From NCBI GenBank assembly GCA_963555755.3, contig OY820905.2, positions 3,136,001-3,200,000 of the forward strand: DNA of 64,000 nt, written 5' to 3'. Both the position numbers and the translations under genes were made by a program. Under the pieces are notes generated by a model. That model did not search any database and was not told where the DNA came from. It worked only from the letters and a program-made list of their open reading frames with translations. Source of the stretch: Nitrospirales bacterium. GTDB lineage: Bacteria > Nitrospirota > Nitrospiria > Nitrospirales > UBA8639. Below are positions 6,577 through 60,375 of the stretch, piece by piece; the stretch's first letter is position 1, and each line of letters opens with the position of its first letter.

Positions 6577-7328
6577 ACCATCCATGCCTTCGGGGCAGGT
6601 GTCTGGCGTGTGGGGATGGGCGAATGATTATTCGCCCCTACGAGGGGGGTGTGTAGGGAATTCCGTTCCCATTGTATCGGGTTATCCAGAATATATTGCC
6701 GGATACGATTCAATTCCGTTTCATTCCGAATAATGTGATCCCAATAATTACGTTGCCAGATTTTGGATGAGACAGATCGTTGCCGGTACCATGTTGTCAC
6801 CCCAATTTTGAATCCACGCACCATAGCCCCGATGGTGCGGGCCGTGCCGGTGGGGTGCGGTGGATTGGCGGATGGGGGCGAATTATGTTTTGATTGTATG
6901 GGCAAATGATTATTCGATTGTAGGGGCGAATAATTATTCGCCCCTACGATAATCACGATGCCGTGAATGTGGTTGGGCATGACCACCCATCCGTCCAATT
7001 CAACATTTGGGAAATGATCAGGAATCTGCAACCAGCAATCGGCGGCCGCACGTCCCGCATCATTCAAACCCATCGCGCCCTCCGTGATGGTTCCGAAACG
7101 GCAAAGCCGATTCTGTGCGCAAATGGTAATAAAATAGGCCCCCGCTTGGGAATAATCATAGCCCCGCAACCGAACCGAACGACGGGGTCGCGGCCGATCG
7201 TTATCCGATTGTACGGACGAATGGTTTGTGGGTATGGCCGGATCATTGATGGGTAGGGGCGAATAATTATTCGCCCGAACGGGTATAGGTGATGGAATAG
7301 GCGCCACCCTGGTAATCATGGTTGTCAT
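6573..7328 (-). CDS. REP-associated tyrosine transposase (RAYT / Y1 HUH)
   Basis: RRSVRLRGYDYSQAGAYFITIC, HUH motif MPNHIHGI, WQRNYWDHIIR..YILDNP. Confidence 0.92.
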   Translation of the reverse strand: MTTMITRVAPIPSPIPVRANNYSPLPINDPAIPTNHSSVQSDNDRPRPRRSVRLRGYDYSQAGAYFITICAQNRLCRFGTITEGAMGLNDAGRAAADCWLQIPDHFPNVELDGWVVMPNHIHGIVIIVGANNYSPLQSNNHLPIQSKHNSPPSANPPHPTGTARTIGAMVRGFKIGVTTWYRQRSVSSKIWQRNYWDHIIRNETELNRIRQYILDNPIQWERNSLHTPLVGANNHSPIPTRQTPAPKAWMV

Positions 7329-8791: not shown

Positions 8792-11202
8792 GAAAACCCC
8801 ATTGTCGCTAAATGGCGGTTCACTTTCACCTCCAACTCAGCCACACGGCTGACCATCTGCGGTATTGGGGTTTCATAGCGTTCGGCCAGTTCCTTCACCC
8901 GCTGGGTGAGGGTCTGGCTGATGCGGTCCATTTCCCCGTGGATGTCGCGGTCCAGCGCGGCGAGCCATTTGTCGTCCACTACCAGCGTCTGAATCTCAGC
9001 CTCGGTGAGCTTGGGATATTGGGCGTAGGCTTTGGCGTCCAGCTCGGCCTCCGCGTCCTTCAGTTTCTTTTTGAGTTCGGTTTCCCTGTTGCTGAATTCC
9101 AGCCATTCCTCCAACACCTTCTTCTCTTCCGCTATCAATTCTCCATTCTCAATTTTCAATTCCTTCAGTCGCGCACCGACTGAAGCCTTATTCACCTTGT
9201 CCAGCTCAGAGAACGCGCCGTCCTCCCCACCGTATTCCTCCTCCAGCTCGGTGATTTGAGCGGTAACGGTTTCCAACTCAGCCACGAGTTTGTCGATGGC
9301 TTCTTGCTCCCTGGCAAAATAGCGGGCGACGATGAGCGACTTGGGCACGAGGTCGCAGATCCAGCCTTTGTCTTTTTCCTTGCCTTTCTTGTCTTTCTCG
9401 ATGATGCGGGTGGTTTCGGCCTTCCAGCCGTCGTCGGCGATGAGGTAGCAGTCGTCCTGCATGGTTTCGGCCCAGTAGTCCATGAGGTGTTGATAGACAT
9501 CGTAATTGTCGATGAGCGGTTTGCCTGTGTAGTGGGCGAGTAGGTCCTCGGAGAGTGCGACGATGATTTCTTTCGGATGGCAATCAGACTTCAATGCCTT
9601 AAGCGTCTTGGCGGTTTTTTTCTGCCATTCGGCGAAGTGGGCGTTCATGCCGGTGATGAAGGTGGCGAACTCCGGGTGCTCGTAGATGGTGGGCTTTAAT
9701 TGAGAGGGGAGAATGGATAATTGAGAATAATTGGGGCGGAGGGGTTGGAAGAGGGCGGCTTTGAGGTTGGGGCAGATGGACCAATACTTTTCCATTGCGT
9801 CGATGTCGCGGTTGGGGATGCCGCCTTTCAGGTGGCCTTCGATGTCCTGGAGGTCTTCGGGCTCTTGGCTATCAATGTAGCGCGGGAGGTTGAGGTTGAA
9901 CTCGTTCTTTTCGATTTCCTCGAAGGAGACCATGCGGGAATATTTGGGGACATCGAGGCGTTTGTTAAAGACATCCACAATCTTATGGATGTCTTGAGAG
10001 CGGAGGCGGTTTTTGGGGCCGTCCTTCATGAAGCCTGCGCTGGCATCAACCATGAAGATGCCCTTGCGGGTGTGGGCGTCCTGCTTGTCGACGACGACGA
10101 TGCAGGCGGGGATGCCGGTGCCGAAGAAAAGGTTAGCTGGCAGGCCGATGATGCCCTTGAGGTAGCCCTTGCGGATGAGGTTTCGGCGAATGTCGGCCTC
10201 GGCATTTCCCCGGAACAGGACGCCATGCGGCAGAATGCAGGCGCCTTTTCCACTTCCACTTGGGCCCGTGCTTTTGAGTGAGCGGACGATGTGTAGCAGG
10301 TAGGCGTAGTCGCCTTGCTTGCCGGGCGGCGTACCGAAAGGCTTGAAGCGCTCGAAGGGGTCGTTGAGCGGGTCGATGCCGGTGCTCCAGCGTTTGTCGG
10401 AAAATGGCGGATTGGCGACGACGTAGTCGAATGTCTTGAGGGTGCCGCCGTCCTGGAACTTGGGATCGGCCAGCGTGTTGCCTTGCACGATGAGCGCGGT
10501 GGGGTTGTTGTGCAGGATCATGTTCATCCGTGCGAGACCACTGGTCGCGGCGTCTTTTTCCTGTCCATAGAGGGTGACGGCGGTACGGGCCTCGTCAGAC
10601 ACCTTTAGAAGTAGGGAGCCTGAGCCGCATGTTGGGTCATAGACGGTGGTATCGCTGGTCGTCTTGGCGTCATGGATGCCGATGATTTGGGCGATGATGC
10701 GGCTGACCTCGGCGGGCGTGTAGAACTGACCCTTGCTCTTGCCACTCTGCGTGGCGAAGTGGCGCATGAGGTATTCATAGGCATCGCCAAGGATGTCATC
10801 GCCTTCGGCGCGGTTCTTGGAGAAGTCGAGCGCCTTGTTCTCGAAGATGGCGACGAGATTAGTGAGGCGGTCCACCATCTCCTTGCCGGTGCCCAGCTTA
10901 GTGGCGTCATTGAAGTCCGGCATGTCGGACAGTTTGTTGGCATTGGCCAGCGGGGCGATGATTTTCTTGTTGATCTGATCGCCGATGTCGGACTTGCCCT
11001 TGAGCGCGACCATGTCCTTGAAGGAGGCGCCTTCGGGGATGGTGATGGGCGCGTAGGGGACGCCGGCGTATTTGTCGCTGACGTATTTGATGAAGAGCAG
11101 GACAAGGACGTAATCCTTGTATTGGCTAGCATCCATGCCGCCGCGCAGTTCGTCGCAGCTACTCCAGAGTGAGCTGTAGAGTTGAGATTTCTTTAAGGCC
11201 AT
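8782..11202 (-). CDS. hsdM: Type I RM N6-adenine methyltransferase subunit M
   Basis: CDELRGGMDASQYKDY, GQFYTP, DPTCGSGSLL, ANPPF, LPHGVLFRG. Confidence 0.96.
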   Translation of the reverse strand: MALKKSQLYSSLWSSCDELRGGMDASQYKDYVLVLLFIKYVSDKYAGVPYAPITIPEGASFKDMVALKGKSDIGDQINKKIIAPLANANKLSDMPDFNDATKLGTGKEMVDRLTNLVAIFENKALDFSKNRAEGDDILGDAYEYLMRHFATQSGKSKGQFYTPAEVSRIIAQIIGIHDAKTTSDTTVYDPTCGSGSLLLKVSDEARTAVTLYGQEKDAATSGLARMNMILHNNPTALIVQGNTLADPKFQDGGTLKTFDYVVANPPFSDKRWSTGIDPLNDPFERFKPFGTPPGKQGDYAYLLHIVRSLKSTGPSGSGKGACILPHGVLFRGNAEADIRRNLIRKGYLKGIIGLPANLFFGTGIPACIVVVDKQDAHTRKGIFMVDASAGFMKDGPKNRLRSQDIHKIVDVFNKRLDVPKYSRMVSFEEIEKNEFNLNLPRYIDSQEPEDLQDIEGHLKGGIPNRDIDAMEKYWSICPNLKAALFQPLRPNYSQLSILPSQLKPTIYEHPEFATFITGMNAHFAEWQKKTAKTLKALKSDCHPKEIIVALSEDLLAHYTGKPLIDNYDVYQHLMDYWAETMQDDCYLIADDGWKAETTRIIEKDKKGKEKDKGWICDLVPKSLIVARYFAREQEAIDKLVAELETVTAQITELEEEYGGEDGAFSELDKVNKASVGARLKELKIENGELIAEEKKVLEEWLEFSNRETELKKKLKDAEAELDAKAYAQYPKLTEAEIQTLVVDDKWLAALDRDIHGEMDRISQTLTQRVKELAERYETPIPQMVSRVAELEVKVNRHLATMGFSWK

Positions 11203-20936: not shown

Positions 20937-21557
20937 ATGAAAAGACGACTTGTTCTGTTGTTAATACTGAGCACATGGGTCATGAGCGTTTGGGGGTGTG
21001 CCACAACTCAACCTGCCAAATTTTATCTATTGAGTTCGTTGACCAAACCGAATGTGCTGGCCAAATCAAAGGGCGAAACATCAGACCTTTCCTTGGGTAT
21101 AGGCCCCATCAGTATTCCGAAATATCTGAACCGGCCCCAAATTGTCACCCGAGCCAGCCGCCATTCCCTGACGCTGTCAGAATTCCATAAATGGGCGGAA
21201 CAACTTGAAGACAATTTTGCTCAGGTGGTCGCGGAGAATCTCTCAATTCTCCTTTCCACGGATCGGGTCGAACTCTTCCCATGGAAACGGCAGCGCTCAA
21301 TCGATTACCAAGTGGTCATGGATGTGATTCAGTTTGATCGAAACCCAGAGGGAGAGGCTCTGCTTCTGGCACGCTGGAGCCTGATGGATGGGAAGGGACA
21401 ACCGGTCGTCATGGGAAAGAAGTCCCGTGTGACGGCGAAGCCAACAGGACAAGATTATGAATCTGTGGTTGAGGCGCTGAGTGAAACCCTTGCAGATCTC
21501 AGTCGAGAAATAGCTGGGGTCATCAAACCCTTTGCTCGAGGAAAAAAGAAAAAGTAA
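20937..21557 (+). CDS. pqiC: PqiC-family lipoprotein
   Basis: VWGC lipobox, PKYLNRPQIVTR, FHKWAE; follows pqiB. Confidence 0.9.
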   Translation: MKRRLVLLLILSTWVMSVWGCATTQPAKFYLLSSLTKPNVLAKSKGETSDLSLGIGPISIPKYLNRPQIVTRASRHSLTLSEFHKWAEQLEDNFAQVVAENLSILLSTDRVELFPWKRQRSIDYQVVMDVIQFDRNPEGEALLLARWSLMDGKGQPVVMGKKSRVTAKPTGQDYESVVEALSETLADLSREIAGVIKPFARGKKKK

Positions 21558-21789
21558 TTGGATTTTTTCGTCCAGCGGAGAACAGAAATTACATCCCGCC
21601 GAAACCGGTCAGATTAACTCTTTCCAAGATTCAATGCGTGGTACGTTGTTGACGGTAGCGCCGGATAAGCATCGAAAGAGTTCGACAAAAGCTGACAACG
21701 TGTAAACAATGGCGCATAGGAAATGCCTATATGAAGCCAGGCACTGAAAACGGCTCTGGTAAAGGAGTTCAATAGTTGGCCCCAACATG

Positions 21790-21945
21790 TAAGAAGCCTA
21801 TACCGAAAAAAGCGTCGCTGTTTAAGCTTGTGATCGGTTTAGAGAAGCAGTTCCTGGCCGGCAAGCGGGACCGGGCAGCCGATCTGGAAAGCGCGATCCG
21901 GGTCTTTCTCGAATTTCTTCGAGGATTTGAATCCCTTGATGTAGA
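21790..21945 (+). pseudogene. Possible N-terminal fragment of a LOG-family protein
   Basis: FLAGKRDRAADLESAIRVFLEFLRGFESL resembles the segment preceding the LOG VTVFGSAR motif, which is missing. Confidence 0.4.
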
Positions 21946-21950
21946 CCAAC

Positions 21951-22208
21951 ATGACCGTCGATAACACGGACGTGATGGTGCCGCACGTGTCCGCCGTATC
22001 GAAGGTGCTCTATATGGGGAACAAAGTCGGGTTTCGTTACAAGTATCTGGGTCTCGACTGGGTCACCGGGGAATTCAAGGCCCGGTGGACCTTTCCCACC
22101 GACAGCGCCCCGTACAACACCTGGGGCGGTATCGGCTATTTCCTTGAAGATGGTGATCTGATCACTGGTGGTTTCTTTAGCGCCAAGCGAGTAAACTTCG
22201 GAAAATGA
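21951..22208 (+). pseudogene. C-terminal fragment of hypothetical protein
   Basis: Protein-like 85-aa ORF (LDWVTGE..GGFFS) with GC-rich codon usage, abutting another fragment. Confidence 0.4.
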
Positions 22209-22401
22209 TTTAATGATGTCGTGTATTTTTCTAAGGTCATGGATGCTCGTCATGGCTTTTTTCCTGCGGACGTCATAGACGTTTCTGTGACCTGACGGGG
22301 CCTTTGTGGCATTTATGACACCGGAATATTTGATCACTGCCTCGTAGAAAAGAAGGAAAATGGCCATTCCCACGTTCCCTCTAACCCCAGGAGGTCTAGT
22401 C

Positions 22402-23115
22402 ATGAAGTCGTTAACGCGTATCGTATTATGTGTGTTTGCCCTAGTGGTGGCAGTCGGATGCGCCTCAACCAAGGTAACCAAGCACGAATCGAAGATCGGC
22501 ACGAAAAAAATTACTCGGCCCGATCGTATTTATGTGTATCCCTTTGCGGCCACACCTGCCGACATCCCAACCTGGTCCGCTTCGGCAGGCCGGTATGCTG
22601 AAAGCACCACACCACAAACGTCAGAGCAAATCGAGATGGGTCGAAACCTGGGCGTCCTCGTGGCGAAGGAATTGGTCACGGAAATTCAGAAGATGGGACT
22701 TTCGGCACTGAGGGGTGGCAAACACACCGTTCCACGAATCAACAACCTTCTGATAACAGGTTATTTTGAAGCGGACGAAGAAGGCAGTACGGCCAAACGC
22801 CTCTCACTTGGTTTCGGCTCCGGGGCCGCAGAGTTAACGACAGCCGTGGAGGGCTACCAAATGACCCCTGAGGGCCCGCGCCTCCTCGGATCAGGCCAGC
22901 TCCAATCCGGCGGAGGCAAAACGCCTGGTCTGATTGTCCCTCTTGCGGTTCTCGCCGCCACCGCTAACCCGATTGGCCTTATTGTTATGGGAGGGATGAA
23001 AGTGCATGGTGAGGTGACAGGCAAGAGTAAAATCGAGGGTGCGGCTAAACGAACGGCCGAGACCATCGCTGACCGGCTACGGGTACGATTCAAGGAACAG
23101 GGGTGGATTCGGTAA
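22402..23115 (+). CDS. DUF4410-like lipoprotein
   Basis: AGGAGG RBS, AVGC lipobox, IYVYPF, DEEGSTAKRLSLGFGSG, GGKTPG. Confidence 0.75.
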   Translation: MKSLTRIVLCVFALVVAVGCASTKVTKHESKIGTKKITRPDRIYVYPFAATPADIPTWSASAGRYAESTTPQTSEQIEMGRNLGVLVAKELVTEIQKMGLSALRGGKHTVPRINNLLITGYFEADEEGSTAKRLSLGFGSGAAELTTAVEGYQMTPEGPRLLGSGQLQSGGGKTPGLIVPLAVLAATANPIGLIVMGGMKVHGEVTGKSKIEGAAKRTAETIADRLRVRFKEQGWIR

Positions 23116-23275
23116 ATGAACAATGAAAAATGAATAGTGAACAATGAAAAAATGAACAACTAAAAATGAAAAGTGAAAAATGAAACTTTAAAAGTTAGAG
23201 AGCCAATTTTTCATTTATCATTGTTCATTTTTAATTCTCCCCATCATTTTTCATTTATCATTATTCATTTATAAC
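23115..23275. repeat. 7-nt-period (AATGAAA) inverted repeat element upstream of four-helix-bundle gene
   Basis: aatgaac aatgaaa aatgaat agtgaac ... then tttcatt tatcatt gttcatt. Confidence 0.9.
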
Positions 23276-23277
23276 TT

Positions 23278-23631
23278 ATGAGAAATAATCCGCTTAAAGA
23301 TAAGAGTTATACATTTGCAATTCGTGTGGTGAAACTATCTCAATTTTTACAGCAGGATAAAAAAGAGTTTGTGCTGAGCAAGCAAGTGCTTCGCAGTGGT
23401 ACTGCAATCGGTGCACTCATTCGGGAGGCGGAGTTTGGGCAGAGTAAGGCGGATTTTGCTAGTAAAATGAGTATTTCATTGAAAGAGGCTAACGAAACGG
23501 AATATTGGTTGTCTTTGTTAAAGGATACAGACTTTATCAGCAAAGATCAGTTTGAATCTTTGCAGTCAGATTGTAAGGAATTAATCGCCATGTTGGTATC
23601 AACGGTAAAAACTTCAAGAAATGAAAAGTGA
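23278..23631 (+). CDS. Four helix bundle protein (TIGR02436 / 23S rRNA IVP family)
   Basis: KSYTFAIRVV, LSKQVLRSGTAIGALIREA, SKADF..ISLKEANETEYWL. Confidence 0.92.
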   Translation: MRNNPLKDKSYTFAIRVVKLSQFLQQDKKEFVLSKQVLRSGTAIGALIREAEFGQSKADFASKMSISLKEANETEYWLSLLKDTDFISKDQFESLQSDCKELIAMLVSTVKTSRNEK

Positions 23632-23730
23632 AAAATGATAAATGAAAAATGGAAATTAAAAAGCTTGAGACCAAATTTTTCATTTATCATTGTTCATTTT
23701 TAATTTCCCCAATCATTGTTCATTTTTAAT
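23620..23730. repeat. Second copy of the AATGAAA element, overlapping the stop codon of the four-helix gene
   Basis: aatgaaa agtgaaa aatgata aatgaaa ... tttttcatttatcattgttcatttttaatt, also present upstream. Confidence 0.9.
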
Positions 23731-23737
23731 TTCTGCC

Positions 23738-23990
23738 ATGCAAGACAAAGTCGTCAAATACTCCGTTCTATTCATGGCCCTGGTACTGAGTGCGATTGTG
23801 CTGCAGACGCTGGCGGAGGTGCTCCCGCCTCTGGCTATCGCCGTGCTGCTGCTGTTCGTGTTCACGCCGCTGGCGAGCTACTCGAAGGAAAAGAGCATCC
23901 CGGCGTGGCTCACGTTCTCGGGACTGCTCGTGGCAGTGATCTTGCCCCTGAGCTTCGCCGGTTCTTTCTTCCACTTCTGGGATAGACCAC
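23738..23990 (+). pseudogene. N-terminal fragment of AI-2E-like membrane transporter
   Basis: VLQTLAEVLPPLAIAVLLLFVFTPL..KSIPAWL hydrophobic pattern, truncated. Confidence 0.5.
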
Positions 23991-24245
23991 ATCGACAAGT
24001 CACCCGCGACGAAGGTCGCCTAATTTTAACCCCGGAGCCGTGGAGAATTTTAACTAACTTTGGGCTTGACTCTTTCAAGATGAAGGCCTACTGACGGTGG
24101 GGAATGGGTATACACACCAATTTAACGTGATTTTCCACCAACATACCGATTAACTCGTTCCGGAGTTAGGAATGGATTTTTTCAATTGTTTTTATTGACT
24201 TGAGGGAAGTTCATAGATTACAAACTTACTGCCTATTAAGCAGAG

Positions 24246-25550
24246 ATGGCATCAAAGGTTTACATGGCCTGGAAAGTTTTAAATTTGAGTCCCATATGTG
24301 ACATGATTCCATGGGCTAAACCGTATTCAAGGAAGTTGAGAGTCCTCCTCACCATTAGCTTGCTCTTGACCGGGAGTGGCTGCCTTTCCCCGATTGCTCT
24401 TCACCAGGCGGTGCTAGAGTATGACCGAACGACTGCCAAAATTCAGGCAGAAATACTCCTCCTGAACATTGTTCGAGCTCAACATGTGGAACCTCTGCAC
24501 TTTACGGCAGTCACCAGTGTGGCGGCCACGTTTAATTTCGAGACAACGGCAGGAATTGCTCCCGGTCAAGCTGGACTGACGGAAACGATCGTGGCTCCCG
24601 TGTTCACCGCCACCGTTTCCGAAAATCCGACCATCACGATTGTGCCTATTGAAGGTGAGGAATTTACTAAACGAGTACTGGCTCCCGTCACGCAGGAGAA
24701 AGTCTCCTTCCTCGCAACCCAGGGGGTTGAGCCGGGTCTCCTGCTTCGGTTGTTAGCCGAAAAGTTTATTGCCATAGGAGACAATGAAACCAAAGTCTTC
24801 CGCAATAATCCAAGATACAAGGACCAATATATTGAATTCCGTAAACGGGTGTTACATCTGTCCTCCTTGGTGGTGGCGAATCAGCTATTTGTAGAACATA
24901 TCCGTTACGAAAAGCGTCTGCCCTTCAAGCTTCCGCCAGAAGAATCGAAAGATGATATCGTTCAGAGCCTGGATGAAATTATTGGGGCGGAAGAAAAGGG
25001 ATACCGATGGAGGTCCATAACCAAGGGTGGTACTCGTGTTCTTACCAAGAAAGTCAGGGGCCGACTAGCTATCACCAACTACTCTATGCGCGAACTCTCT
25101 AATGAAGAACGACGCTTCCTGCACGAAGAAGCCAGAATTCATACCGAGAACACCATTCTTGTTGATATTCGTCCGGATAAACCTGGGGGTAACTTCCCCA
25201 TTCATGGATTTTTTTGGTTCCGCAGCTTCGCGGATACCCTGCAATATGTGGCAAGGGAAAATTCAACCTTTCCCGGGTTCGATGTCCGGCCGGATCCACG
25301 AACAGGCCCAATTGGTCCAAATCCTCCATTACCCCTTAAAATTGAGGTATCTTCAAATAAGCCGGCGAATGCCGCCTTCAAGGTGAAACATCATGACTTT
25401 TGGTACTGGATTAAAAAAGGAACGGGGGGGCTCCCGAAAGGAGACACTGCTTGGAACCTGGAAGCATTTCGCACGCTGAACCAACTCTATCAAATGACCG
25501 TGGCTGATTTGAGCCATAGACCCAGTCCCACCATCACGATAGCAAAATAA
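24246..25550 (+). CDS. Hypothetical lipoprotein
   Basis: 434-aa ORF, GSGC lipobox, LLLNIVR and NPTITIVP motifs. Confidence 0.75.
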   Translation: MASKVYMAWKVLNLSPICDMIPWAKPYSRKLRVLLTISLLLTGSGCLSPIALHQAVLEYDRTTAKIQAEILLLNIVRAQHVEPLHFTAVTSVAATFNFETTAGIAPGQAGLTETIVAPVFTATVSENPTITIVPIEGEEFTKRVLAPVTQEKVSFLATQGVEPGLLLRLLAEKFIAIGDNETKVFRNNPRYKDQYIEFRKRVLHLSSLVVANQLFVEHIRYEKRLPFKLPPEESKDDIVQSLDEIIGAEEKGYRWRSITKGGTRVLTKKVRGRLAITNYSMRELSNEERRFLHEEARIHTENTILVDIRPDKPGGNFPIHGFFWFRSFADTLQYVARENSTFPGFDVRPDPRTGPIGPNPPLPLKIEVSSNKPANAAFKVKHHDFWYWIKKGTGGLPKGDTAWNLEAFRTLNQLYQMTVADLSHRPSPTITIAK

Positions 25551-29171: not shown

Positions 29172-29284
29172 GGTGAAACGTATCTCGGGGTTCGTCTCTC
29201 GGAGTTTGTATCTCGTATCTCGTGAAGCGTATTTCGTGTAAGAAGAAGAAATACGAAATCCGATTGATACTCTGAAAGAACTCT

Positions 29285-30296
29285 TATGCCTTCCCATTTA
29301 ACTAAGGTTGCTTCAGTTTATTGAATCCCAAGGGTTTTGAGCTGCTGGTCAGGATTTTCAACAAACTCTGGAAGGTACTCATTGGAGTCTCACGGCGGTT
29401 ATAGCGAAAGACAAACTCATCAAGATAGTGTTGCAGGTATTTTGAATCCACTCCATGGTGAATCCCGTTCAGCCAGGTCTGCAGATTGCCGAACGCTCTA
29501 TGGATGTGTGGAGCGTGCTTCCCAGCACTTGCTGGGTCACCCTGGGTCCGTCTCAGGTGTTCGTATCCTGCCAAGGCTTTTGCCGAGTATCCCTTCCAAC
29601 CATCGGACTTGATCTTACTGCCCTCAGCGACATGGCTATTGAGGAATGCTTTGATCTCGTTCTCTCCAGCGTCTTGAAGAATCGCTAATCGTAAACGCCC
29701 TGCTTTCTCTCGAAAGTGATCCCCTTGTGTGTACGTGACAATTTCTACGGCTCCGGCTATTAACGTCTTGGTTTTCGCTTTCGCGACGCCACGGCCCGTT
29801 TTGCCTTTTACCGGTCCACCGATATGGGTTTCATCGGCTTCAACTGTTCCTGCGAGCCGTTCACGGTTCTGTCGTACCATTCCTCGTCGCAATCTGTGGA
29901 GCAAATACCAGGCGCTATCCACCTTCTTGATACTGAGTTGACGCTGCAATTGCACAGCACTGATGCCAGGTGTGTGCGTGGAGACGAAATAGGCAGCCCA
30001 AAACCAAAGCCGTAGCGGCAAGTGCGATCTATGCATCACTGTGCCGCTTAGCGGTGATGTCTGTCTATGACACGACGAACACTCAAACCGGAAATATTTT
30101 TTGAGCCACCAACCACCGCGATGACCGCAAGCTGGACACATAAACCCGTCTGGCCACCGAATCGCCCGCAAGTACTCGAAGCACGCTTCTTCGGTGTGGA
30201 ACCTAACAGAAAAATCCAAGATATCAGCAGCATACCCTGTGTCCATAGTCCAGCAGACTAGTCTAGGGACTAACCTTAGTCAAATGGGAAGGCATA
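29285..30296 (-). mobile_element. IS1595-family insertion sequence, copy 1 (1012 bp)
   Basis: 25-bp TIR tatgccttcccatttRactaaggtt; 8-bp TSD agaactct at 29277-29284 and 30297-30304. Confidence 0.95.
29302..30246 (-). CDS. IS1595-family transposase
   Basis: RWPDGFMCPAC zinc ribbon, VEADETHIGG, SDGWKGY, YLDEFVFRYNRR. Confidence 0.95.
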   Translation of the reverse strand: MDTGYAADILDFSVRFHTEEACFEYLRAIRWPDGFMCPACGHRGGWWLKKYFRFECSSCHRQTSPLSGTVMHRSHLPLRLWFWAAYFVSTHTPGISAVQLQRQLSIKKVDSAWYLLHRLRRGMVRQNRERLAGTVEADETHIGGPVKGKTGRGVAKAKTKTLIAGAVEIVTYTQGDHFREKAGRLRLAILQDAGENEIKAFLNSHVAEGSKIKSDGWKGYSAKALAGYEHLRRTQGDPASAGKHAPHIHRAFGNLQTWLNGIHHGVDSKYLQHYLDEFVFRYNRRETPMSTFQSLLKILTSSSKPLGFNKLKQP

Positions 30297-30356: not shown

Positions 30357-31508
30357 ATGAATAACGACTCGAAGGGCTTTGAAATGTGGAAAAACATTTG
30401 CAATGTAAAATTGAGGAGGACGTTCTTTCTCGTCGGATGCCTCATTGTGGGCGGGATGTTTGGGGGATGTGGGGAAGCGCCTCAAGCAGAACCAGAAGAA
30501 TTGATCAGGCCCGTCCGTTCGCAACTGGTCTTTCTGACAGGAAGCGACCAAGTTCGCACCTTTTCTGGAACTGCCAGGGCCGGTCTGGAAGCAAAGTTAA
30601 GTTTTAAAGTATCAGGGACACTTCAACGGTTGTTGGTAAAAGTGGGAGACAAAGTTCGGCAAGGCCAAGTGATCGCCGTGCTTGATGCACGAGACTATGA
30701 CTTGCAAGTTCAACGGGCGGAAGCCACGCTGGCGCGTGCCAAAGCCTCCGCCAGGAGTGCGTCTGCCGACTACTCACGAGTCCGGGCCCTCTACGAAAAC
30801 CGCAATGCCTCTCGAAACGATTTGGATCAGGCCAGGGCTGCGGCTGAATCCTCGCGGGCGGAAGTCGCCTCCAGTACCAAAGATGTGGAAATTGCCAGTT
30901 TGCAATTAGGGTATACCCGATTGTCTGCTCCTGCGACATGCTATGTCGCATCAGTCCCTGTGGAGGTGAATGAAAATGTGCAGGCTGGCGGGATCGTCAT
31001 GGAAGTAGTGTGCGGTTCTCGATTGGAAGTCGAAGTGAGTATTCCCGAAGTGTTTATTGCCCGTGTGAAAAAAGGCAGCGCGGTGACAGCGACCTTCGAT
31101 GCGATTCCGGGCATTCAGTTTCCCTCGATAGTCACGGAGGTAGGCGTGGCATCGGGGAGAACGGGGACCACCTTTCCTGTGACTGTTCAATTGCAACAAC
31201 GAGTTCCAGGATTTCGATCCGGCTTAGCGGCAGAAGTGACGTTTCGCTTTGAAGGGCGGAAGGGCCAGGCCCGAATTCTGGTTCCTCCTGTTGCGGTGGG
31301 TGAGGACCGTGAAGGTCGGTTTGTCTTTGTGTTTGAAGAAATTGAAGGGGGAATGGGAATGGTTCACCGAAAGCCAGTCACCGTTGGAGAACTCACGGCT
31401 GAAGGATTAGAAATCCTCGATGGTCTGGTCGATGGGGAACGTGTCGTCACCGCCGGAGTGCGCCGGTTACATGACGGCCGGAAAGTACGGTTGATGGATG
31501 ATGCGTGA
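30357..31508 (+). CDS. RND efflux periplasmic adaptor (MFP)
   Basis: Lipobox FGGC, LSFKVSG, VKVGDKVRQGQ, LGYTRLSAP, GERVVTAG. Confidence 0.92.
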   Translation: MNNDSKGFEMWKNICNVKLRRTFFLVGCLIVGGMFGGCGEAPQAEPEELIRPVRSQLVFLTGSDQVRTFSGTARAGLEAKLSFKVSGTLQRLLVKVGDKVRQGQVIAVLDARDYDLQVQRAEATLARAKASARSASADYSRVRALYENRNASRNDLDQARAAAESSRAEVASSTKDVEIASLQLGYTRLSAPATCYVASVPVEVNENVQAGGIVMEVVCGSRLEVEVSIPEVFIARVKKGSAVTATFDAIPGIQFPSIVTEVGVASGRTGTTFPVTVQLQQRVPGFRSGLAAEVTFRFEGRKGQARILVPPVAVGEDREGRFVFVFEEIEGGMGMVHRKPVTVGELTAEGLEILDGLVDGERVVTAGVRRLHDGRKVRLMDDA

Positions 31509-31558
31509 TGCGTGAAAGACTCTTCCCCCATTACGCATAACTCATTACGCATCACGAT
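31503..31558. repeat. 7-nt-period inverted repeat element at the MFP stop codon
   Basis: gcgtgat gcgtgaa ... ttacgca taactca ttacgca tcacgat. Confidence 0.75.
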
Positions 31559-48475: not shown

Positions 48476-49723
48476 ATGCGTATTCTTGTTCTCAATTGTG
48501 GAAGTTCTTCTCTGAAGTTTCGTCTCCTTGATCTTGGGAAAAAACAGAGGGCGTGAATCGAGTTCTGGTCAACGGTGCAGTCAAGGGCATTGGTGGAACT
48601 GGCACTCTTGAATTCAGTGCGGAAGGGCAAGCAGGATCGAAAATCAGCAAACCTGTTTCTGATCATGCCCACGCCATCCAATGGATATTTGAGGGCCTCG
48701 GAAAGTTACCCGGAGGAGAGAACCACACTGTTGGGCTTTCGCAGGTAGATGCTGTGGGGCACCGGGTGGTCCATGGTGGGGAAAGATTCTCCGCCTCCAT
48801 CTTGATTGATGAGACGGTTGAAAAGGAAATTGAGGGGTTAAGTGTAATTGGCGCCCTTGCATAATCCAGCGTGTCTAGCTGGGATTCGAGGCGCCAACGC
48901 AACGTTGGGTGATAGGGTTCCCATGGTGGCGGTATTTGATACAGCCTTTCACCAAACCATGCCGGCGGTAGCCAAGACCTATGCCCTCCCACATGAGATG
49001 GCTTCCCGACACGGGATTCATCGATATGGTTTCCATGGCATTGCCCATGCATCCCTTGCCGATGGGTACGCAAAGTTCAAGGGCAACGCACCCTCTGACA
49101 TTCGAATTATCACGTTGCAATTAGGGAATGGGTGCTCGGTCACTGCTATTGCCGGTGGGAAATCTGTTGAAACCTCGATGGGGTTCACCCCTTTGGAGGG
49201 TTTGGTGATGGGAACCCGATCAGGAGATGTCGATCCCTCTGTCGTCAGTTATCTGTCCGAGAAAGAAAAAGTCGAGCCTTCGGAAGTCGAACTATGGCTG
49301 AATGAAAAATCCGGCCTGTTGGGGATTTCTGGAAGAACCAATGACATGCGGGAATTACTGCTCGCTGCCTCTCAGGAACACGACGAGCAGGCACAACTTG
49401 CCATTAATCTATTTTGCTATCGGGCCAAAAAATACATCGGGGCTTACTTGGCCATTTTGGGAGGTGCCGAGGCAATAATATTCGGTGGAGGCATTGGTGA
49501 GGCGTCCAGCGCCATTCGGGCTCGGATCTGCGAGGGTATGGGATGGTGCGGATTGCAGTTGGACGAGGGAAAGAATAACGCAGCGGTTGGTCTCCAGCCA
49601 GGACATGTCGCCATAATCAGCAAAGGGAACTCTTCTCTGAATGCGTATGTCGTGGCCGCTGATGAGGAAACGTGGATTGCACGAGAGACTGTCCGTTGCC
49701 TAAAGGCAACGAACGGCGTTTAG
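48476..49723 (+). pseudogene. ackA: Acetate kinase, two frameshifts
   Basis: MRILVLNCGSSSLKF (48476), GHRVVHGGE and APLHNP/YGFHG/SMGFTPLEG lie in three separate ORF pieces; breaks near 48545 and 48846. Confidence 0.9.
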
Positions 49724-49835
49724 AGTTCAGAGTTCCGGGTTTTGCGTTTAAAGTTAGGAAATATTTAGGAATCTGAATTTGTGTATTTGTGTTATTTCAA
49801 TCTCACTCGAAACAATGAACTCTGAACTCGAAACT
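49722..49835. repeat. 7-nt-period inverted repeat element after ackA
   Basis: agagttc agagttc cgggttt tgcgttt aaagtt ... gaactct gaactcg aaactt. Confidence 0.65.
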
Positions 49836-60062: not shown

Positions 60063-60375
60063 ACTTGCAATTCCCGGTAGCTTCTTTCGGAGTACCCACT
60101 TAGACCCCTCCTTTGGAAAATCCCCCCTCCCCCCTTTGCAAAGGGGGGCAAGAGATGGTGAATTCCACTCCTTACCACCCCTTTATCAAAGGGTGTAAGG
60201 GGACGGCGCATTCCTCTTTACCCCCCACCTTTGGCGAAGGGGTGTAAGGGGCTGGCGTCTTCCTCTTTCCCCCCCCTTTGCAAAGGGGGGAAGGGGGGAT
60301 TTTCTTACGGTTGATGGTACCAAAGAGCAAGAACGCTGCTGGTTATATTTTCCAACATCCTGTTAGGACTCCCAC

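Follow-up and report, generated by a model that had tools for sequence, protein, structure and literature searches.

The window analysed here, a stretch of 64,000 nucleotides from the genome of a Nitrospirales bacterium, contains a short gene enclosed by two hairpins whose arms are built from degenerate 7-nt repeats. This raises the question of how the gene and its repeats are related, and whether together they form a mobile unit, as a first-pass annotation of the sequence had supposed. The locus ties together two problems: the role of the very widespread TIGR02436 protein family and the over-representation of 7-base repeats between bacterial genes, which is called unexplained in the accessible parts of two earlier papers (PMC4692102 and PMC4679880). 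Many of the 7-base repeats in bacterial genomes that so far lack an explanation may stem from this gene and its arms.

The gene lies at 23278..23631 (+) and encodes a protein of 117 aa with a pI of 9.0. Its GC content is 0.38, compared with 0.51 for the window. A repeat search returned four period-7 arrays around it (23114-23185, 23206-23272, 23619-23655 and 23675-23706), and on each flank a purine array is followed by a pyrimidine array. The upstream hairpin consists of a purine-rich arm at 23113..23185 (+; AAAAATG, AAAAGTG and AACAATG units), a loop at 23186..23205 (+) and a pyrimidine-rich mirror arm at 23206..23272 (+) that ends just before the ATG. The downstream hairpin has its purine-rich arm at 23619..23655 (+), a loop at 23656..23674 (+) that resembles the upstream one and a mirror arm at 23675..23732 (+), which ends 5 nt before the next ATG. 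The flanks form a direct repeat of 116 nt with 83% identity, 469 nt apart, and share a 30-mer that has exactly two occurrences, at 23207 and 23676. The first array is opened by the TAA stop codon (23113-23115) of the upstream DUF4410 lipoprotein-like gene at 22402..23115 (+; longest ORF from 22360), and the second encodes the last codons and the TGA of the enclosed gene. Next, at 23738..23974 (+), comes a fragment from the 5' end of a gene for an AI-2E transporter. In all these points (an AT-rich gene, a sequence common to both flanks, similar loops, one array beginning at the upstream stop and the other supplying the gene's own) the first-pass annotation described the locus correctly.

Hairpin folding gave z values of -6.6, -5.4 and -3.8, and none of 200 shuffles was as good. 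The hairpins are not an assembly artefact, since both are matched letter for letter by public-run contigs (X1 and X5) from more than one study; the upstream hairpin is also matched by X8. A consensus scan found no terminator at the window hairpins, and positions 21500-25500 gave no Rfam match at the gathering score, only sub-threshold AT-rich matches. Contigs of the RNA runs X9 and X10, which belong to one study, span the upstream gene and not the four-helix gene; they are not taken as evidence of expression or termination. Further gene junctions of the window have arrays or hairpins without a gene, built of other heptamer units (446-535, 1502-1532, 9135-9162, 29179-29223, 31485-31557 and 49715-49750). 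Palindromic or tandem repeats of other types, with periods of 24 and 48 nt, were seen at 6892-6940 and 60129-60296, and a transposase of the IS1595 family at 29302-30246.

In HMM searches, the 117-aa ORF scored 106.8 bits against TIGR02436 (cut-off 24) and 97.3 bits against PF05635 (cut-off 33.8), and no nuclease or recombinase domain was found in it. The structure model (pLDDT 94) predicts four long helices at residues 5-26, 32-52, 57-83 and 89-115, as expected of the TIGR02436/PF05635 bundle. It matches BT_0352 (2RLD) with 57% identity and a TM score of about 0.9, and Xcc0516 (2GSC) with a TM score of 0.75. As 2RLD has five chains, the window protein is probably a homopentamer as well. The gene is under purifying selection, with a dS of 0.21 and a dN of 0 against its homologue on the related contig L041, and 0.98 and 0.08 against that of L043. 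The structural kinship to Avd that had been noted for this family was recovered, as a weak match (4DWL; TM 0.77, 14% identity, E 0.034), and the model also matches the Avd chains of DGR reverse-transcriptase complexes. The accessible text of PMC10053308 states that PF05635 and Avd are homologous.

The resemblance to Avd suggests one possible route of spread, in which an Avd-like pentamer would enlist, in trans, a reverse transcriptase of the host, and a cDNA of arm, gene and arm would be written into gene junctions. The co-directional position of the gene in operons and the 35 RVT_1 (reverse-transcriptase) hits in the genome would suit such a route. However, no reverse transcriptase is linked to the locus, the nearest RVT_1 hit being about 100 kb away, and DGR template and variable repeats, which would differ at adenines, were not found in 22800-24100, where only heptamer-derived repeats occur. 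Besides the low identity to Avd, the homologous loci lack a general target duplication (see below), and co-direction is equally expected of any promoterless gene. Copying through RNA is therefore considered improbable.

The association of gene and arms is not a peculiarity of the window. Heptamer arms accompany all four TIGR02436 genes of this genome, in three different units, and a genome-wide scan gave 139 clusters with period 7, compared with 85 for period 14 and 0-50 for every other period from 4 to 15. Both checks had been proposed in the first-pass annotation. At C1:3789400-3789990 (L001), the four-helix gene for the commonest heptamer unit of the genome is interrupted by a palindromic insert. 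In the GTDB, the best 80 of 569 confirmed homologues are labelled with 14 phyla; some bins may be mislabelled, L041 probably so. Period-7 arrays were found on both flanks in 61 of these 80, as opposed to 48 of 1241 control windows, and periods of 5, 6, 8, 9 and 10 gave 0/80. A purine arm lies upstream in 63/80, a pyrimidine arm downstream in 56/80, and both in 46/80. The commonest form is thus a purine arm, the gene and a mirror arm. Whole hairpins on both sides, scored by script, occur in 1/80, and packaging between two direct hairpin copies, which had been taken for the design of the element, is not the rule.

Each protein clade has its own repeat unit, and three such pairs exist in this one genome. 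On a quick protein tree, with five partial loci left out, the unit follows the proteins with 65 changes (80.6 when shuffled; 0/200 as low). Across 75 loci, the mirror arm of a locus matches its upstream arm more closely than the mirror arms of other loci do (0/10,000 permutations, a figure inflated by kinship). However, linked inheritance would equally produce both the tracking of the unit and the mirroring of the arms, and related loci do not count as independent cases. Among 41 related genomes, the unit of the window was found in only two; at 26 of 32 inspected loci, period 7 reached at least 15/21 on a flank, as against 1/32 for period 6 or 8. When judged by eye, the arms are of longer period at three of the six loci that fell short. 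By eye as well, one four-helix subfamily (L022, L024 and L025) has an arm period of about 9-10 nt rather than 7. The commonest unit is abundant in four of these genomes, all of one genus; its cognate gene was detected in two, and the other two are 64-82% complete.

It might be argued that the heptamers are simple repeats which propagate by themselves in AT-rich spacers, the gene being a chance passenger. The 111 strong arrays of this genome far outnumber its four detected four-helix genes, and the same hairpins bound every gene of a second copy of the block described below. Chance is nevertheless difficult to reconcile with the difference between homologous and control windows, with a unit that tracks the protein and not the host, or with gene-free sites at which the start of the gene is still present (28 in this genome). 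In addition, the accessible part of PMC4990558 reports heptamers preceding the same gene family in a Coxiella rRNA intervening sequence (IVS). The chance reading, already disfavoured, is hardly tenable. Gene and arms are coupled throughout the family. No description of this coupling was found in the open-access papers searched, and within that scope it is apparently undescribed.

The arms also have a preferred place. The neighbours of the homologues belong to unrelated operons, among them lysC-lysA, hemB-hemL, araB-araD, prfB, type I restriction genes and RND and ABC exporters (86 of 148 flanking ORFs scanned; gene names inferred from Pfam domains). The upstream ORF is on the same strand at 67 of 71 loci, and 56 of 66 arms begin within -25..+10 of its stop codon. 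Stop codons in all three frames were found in 48/66 upstream arms versus 15/65 mirror arms. The arms rewrite host genes by supplying stop codons and C-terminal residues. There is no general target duplication: at 75 of the 80 loci (five were dropped for short flanks), the median score was 18 for a locus's own flanks and 17 for mismatched pairs. Four of the 75 loci scored above background; the one clear target-like case is L108, where the first part of the downstream gene is duplicated over 26 nt and the two copies bracket the cassette.

If gene and arms are mobile, orthologous junctions should differ in their content. Three junctions in other lineages were surveyed, using the best 30 loci for each and dropping two unpublished genomes; the comparison is unrooted as to gain or loss. 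At araB-araD, one locus was filled, eight had an array only and 21 were bare (n = 30); the corresponding numbers were three, 13 and 14 at RND-TolC (n = 30) and one, ten and 17 at prfB (n = 28). The array-only alleles have many units, and different units occur at one and the same junction. At RND-TolC, the entire cassette is present in some alleles and missing from others whose upstream proteins share 97-98% identity with them. Where it is present, translation of the mirror arm provides TolC with an N-terminus in place of the native one, which indicates a replacement rather than a clean insertion. In one genus, that of G042 (L193, L197, L198 and L213), the T-rich arm encodes the hydrophobic N-terminus of a TolC-like protein in place of the native signal peptide.

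Within the genus of the present genome, a filled allele and a gene-free hairpin both occur at one junction. Mapping 28 loci of relatives on the present genome gave 14 adjacent gene pairs, with one gene-free hairpin, two filled sites, nine junctions with neither gene nor arms and two long unrelated gaps. Since relatives thus have the cassette at nine junctions where both gene and arms are missing here, pre-existing hairpins are not required as targets. Neither an insertion event nor an intermediate was seen in the loci compared.

The history of the window copy itself is more modest. Positions 22388-23974 are a paralogue of C1:3232604-3234432, which comprises the DUF4410 gene, the four-helix gene and the AI-2E transporter gene. 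The AI-2E gene is shortened in the window and whole in the second copy and in L041. By sequence comparison, the window copy came with its neighbours as a three-gene block and not by an independent insertion. A dispersed 65-bp repeat at 24008..24075 (no strand), with at least eight other copies, adjoins the truncation of the AI-2E gene; it lies just past the end of the homology to the second copy and outside the cassette. At L156:312-535, a degraded, truncated four-helix gene is fused to sequence like that of window positions 22124-22167, upstream of a DUF4410 gene. The view of gene and repeats as a spreading cassette thus gains from the close homologues at many unrelated junctions and from the filled and gene-free states of orthologous junctions, but it does not apply to the arrival of the window copy, which moved in a block.

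In the second block and in L041, hairpins of the window's family stand at every gene junction. The two flanks of the four-helix gene are direct in the window and inverted in these two (direct/reverse scores of 138/69 for the window, 111/204 for the second block and 79/135 for L041), because the inner part of the upstream hairpin, about 65 bp long, is flipped. This inner segment of loop and inner arm (23183..23246 in the window; no strand) is inverted in two of four homologous alleles, the fourth, L121, being oriented as in the window when judged by eye. The "two direct copies" of the first-pass annotation are therefore one state of an invertible hairpin.

Direct copies had also suggested that the gene and one hairpin might excise as a circle and integrate at another single hairpin. 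The direct 116-nt flanks in the window would permit this, and a neighbouring case points the same way: an AAA/DUF4143 gene is enclosed by two hairpins in three alleles (those of this genome, G005 and L126), and two others (L041 and L162) lack it and retain one hairpin. However, the inverted flanks of the second copy and L041 and the single locus in 80 with whole hairpins on both sides do not agree with such a circle. Moreover, the single-hairpin empty allele that it predicts was not found at this junction. The 31 loci inspected out of 42 metagenome loci of the upstream gene, as well as G005 and G013, are filled or arm-free (the 11 left out were mostly partial matches, one being the contig of L041). 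The DUF4410 relatives that lack the four-helix gene (85-88% identity) are wholly arm-free and have a different downstream sequence, the divergence starting at the stop codon. Nor did the public runs that contain this strain yield a joint skipping the four-helix gene. Gene-skipping joints in environmental runs (23150-23667 and similar) were rejected as evidence of an empty allele, because the arm is common to both hairpins and a shortened upstream hairpin or another locus would fit equally (likeness 85). Excision as a circle is very improbable. The AAA/DUF4143 case (C1:3231214-3232465; L006, L126, L041 and L162) does demonstrate that the arms can bound cargo besides the four-helix gene.

Gene-free hairpins are abundant in this genome, and one family records how they can arise. 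The family with AAGGCTG arms (41 motif matches, about 38 distinct elements) consists of short versions of a cassette that is present at full length in G005 and G006; no cognate four-helix gene for these arms is detectable in the present genome. The first codons of the gene are retained at the 28 sites mentioned above and its last codons at five, and its middle at none. The elements, mostly 120-240 bp long, are bounded by IS66 ends and accompanied by target duplications of 8 bp (for example C1: 29424-29557, 725963-726096, 3241711-3241843 and 3993312-3993445). An exact 8-bp duplication was found at 21 of 45 end-bounded elements, including six of the 17 heptamer ones, while lengths of 5, 6, 7, 9 and 10 bp gave 0-1/45. 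The genome holds 12 full IS66 copies of 2413 bp with identical ends, and 14 equal-scoring IS66 transposase hits were seen on C1. With IS66 ends, an 8-bp duplication and an intact partner IS, the family belongs to the IS66-type MITEs. Another family of MITEs, about 140 bp long, has the same IS66 ends and a different palindromic interior (for example C1: 920040-920180, 1212961-1213100, 2740398-2740538 and 3478422-3478561).

The AAGGCTG series indicates that gene-free hairpins can be deletion relics, and equally that they can spread by an ordinary transposase without a cognate four-helix gene. The proposal that such cassettes spread without a recognised transposase is not supported in this respect. 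The only spread of an arm family in this genome that bears clear hallmarks was driven by IS66, and no cognate gene is detected for it; this is an observation against our preferred reading. IS66 ends, sought as those of this genome, were absent from the window element and from all 80 homologous loci. As an ordinary, block-duplicated member of its class, the window copy is of value because flip states and an IS66-captured deletion series can be compared in the same genome.

The other gene-free arrays are less easily assigned to one explanation. Of the 111 strong arrays, 100 are non-coding; where an array comes after a stop codon, the purine arm leads in 38 cases versus two, and array pairs run purine-pyrimidine in 11 cases and the reverse in none. 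The family of the commonest unit comprises about 50 gene-free hairpins without conserved ends. Also noted, at C1:4254884-4255039 and 4435166-4435283, were about 20 AAAAATG units in near-perfect succession and a chimeric hairpin, whose two arms differ in their unit. Such a distribution might be expected if the four-helix protein were an RNA-binding regulator retained by the host, with the junction hairpins as its binding sites in mRNA processing, stability or translational coupling, autoregulation through its own arms, and movement as an incidental result of horizontal transfer, block duplication and IS capture. Strong purifying selection on the gene would accord with this, and a repeat-binding regulator is proposed in the accessible text of MacGregor 2015 (PMC4679880). 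However, a host function of this kind is not readily compatible with several homologues in relatives that are split or carry stop codons, with the interrupted gene for the commonest unit here, with units that replace each other at one junction, or with hairpins of several units that persist without a detected cognate gene. A host regulator is thus an unlikely explanation, yet not a negligible one.

The reading that we prefer, with a probability of about 50%, is that of a likely selfish, promoterless cassette, which enters gene junctions by arm recombination with no transposase of its own and decays to gene-free hairpins. Its likely selfish nature is suggested by relatives in about 14 phyla that carry matching arms at unrelated junctions. 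Such a cassette would enter between two co-transcribed genes by recombination through mirror-image, degenerate 7-base arrays. Pairing may take place between the purine arm and older arms or the A-rich ends of genes, and between the mirror arm and signal-peptide DNA or T-rich leaders; entry would then be a replacement without target duplication. Because a 7-base unit does not divide evenly into codons, stop codons would occur in all frames of the purine arm; the host operon would then survive and the cassette be tolerated. Later recombination between arms may flip the loops, which would give the "direct" state of the window, duplicate or delete arm segments and move neighbouring genes. It may also delete the gene and leave gene-free hairpins, some of them re-mobilised by IS66. 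The putative Avd-like, probably pentameric protein might bind its own arms as ssDNA or RNA and promote these recombinations.

A wider claim is advanced only tentatively. TIGR02436 genes might be the autonomous members of an unrecognised, transposase-free class of mobile elements, in which a putative Avd-like pentamer would recognise the 7-nt-period arms that belong to it and cause them to be written into junctions. The heptamers over-represented in many bacterial genomes and the ORF-bearing rRNA IVS would then be footprints or deletion relics of this class. The element itself is real and general.

Several known systems resemble the window element in part. Integron cassette arrays likewise have genes separated by related hairpins and gained or lost between them, and REP-RAYT systems likewise pair one protein clade with one repeat family. 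An integron integrase is not linked to the locus, since intI lies at C1:318997 and the two blocks at C1:3.16 and 3.23 Mb. The four-helix fold is shared with Avd of the DGRs (4DWL), BT_0352 (2RLD) and Xcc0516 (2GSC). IS66-derived MITEs and mobile insertion cassettes accommodate the AAGGCTG family, whereas the window element has neither IS66 ends nor a target duplication of fixed length. The TAACTGA heptamers of Beggiatoaceae (MacGregor 2015, PMC4679880), for which the accessible text finds no transfer mechanism evident, and the GGGAATC heptamers of Xanthomonas (Rehm 2015, PMC4692102) are, as far as these texts go, intergenic period-7 arrays like those of the window, near gene ends, often in convergent pairs and with a patchy phylogeny. 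A term search of the accessible text found no mention of four-helix, S23 or Avd in the former, nor of xcc0516 or 23S in the latter.

The closest relative is the IVS of 23S rRNA with its S23p/PF05635 gene in Coxiella and Leptospira. According to the accessible part of PMC4990558, it encodes the same protein family, and there too a stem-forming element within a host transcript surrounds the gene. The same source describes a varying number of GACAGAT heptamers in tandem, directly before the start of S23p in the Coxiella IVS, as well as decay of the S23p ORF in 23S rRNA IVS; in that part, no general link to heptamers is drawn. Unlike this IVS, which lies in helix 45 of a 23S rRNA gene, the window element occupies an mRNA junction between protein genes and has long arrays as arms on both sides of its gene. 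It belongs to TIGR02436/PF05635 and is neither an rRNA IVS nor a DGR, and neither an integron cassette nor an IS66 MITE. By analogy, it would work like an ORF-bearing IVS that has moved to mRNA junctions.
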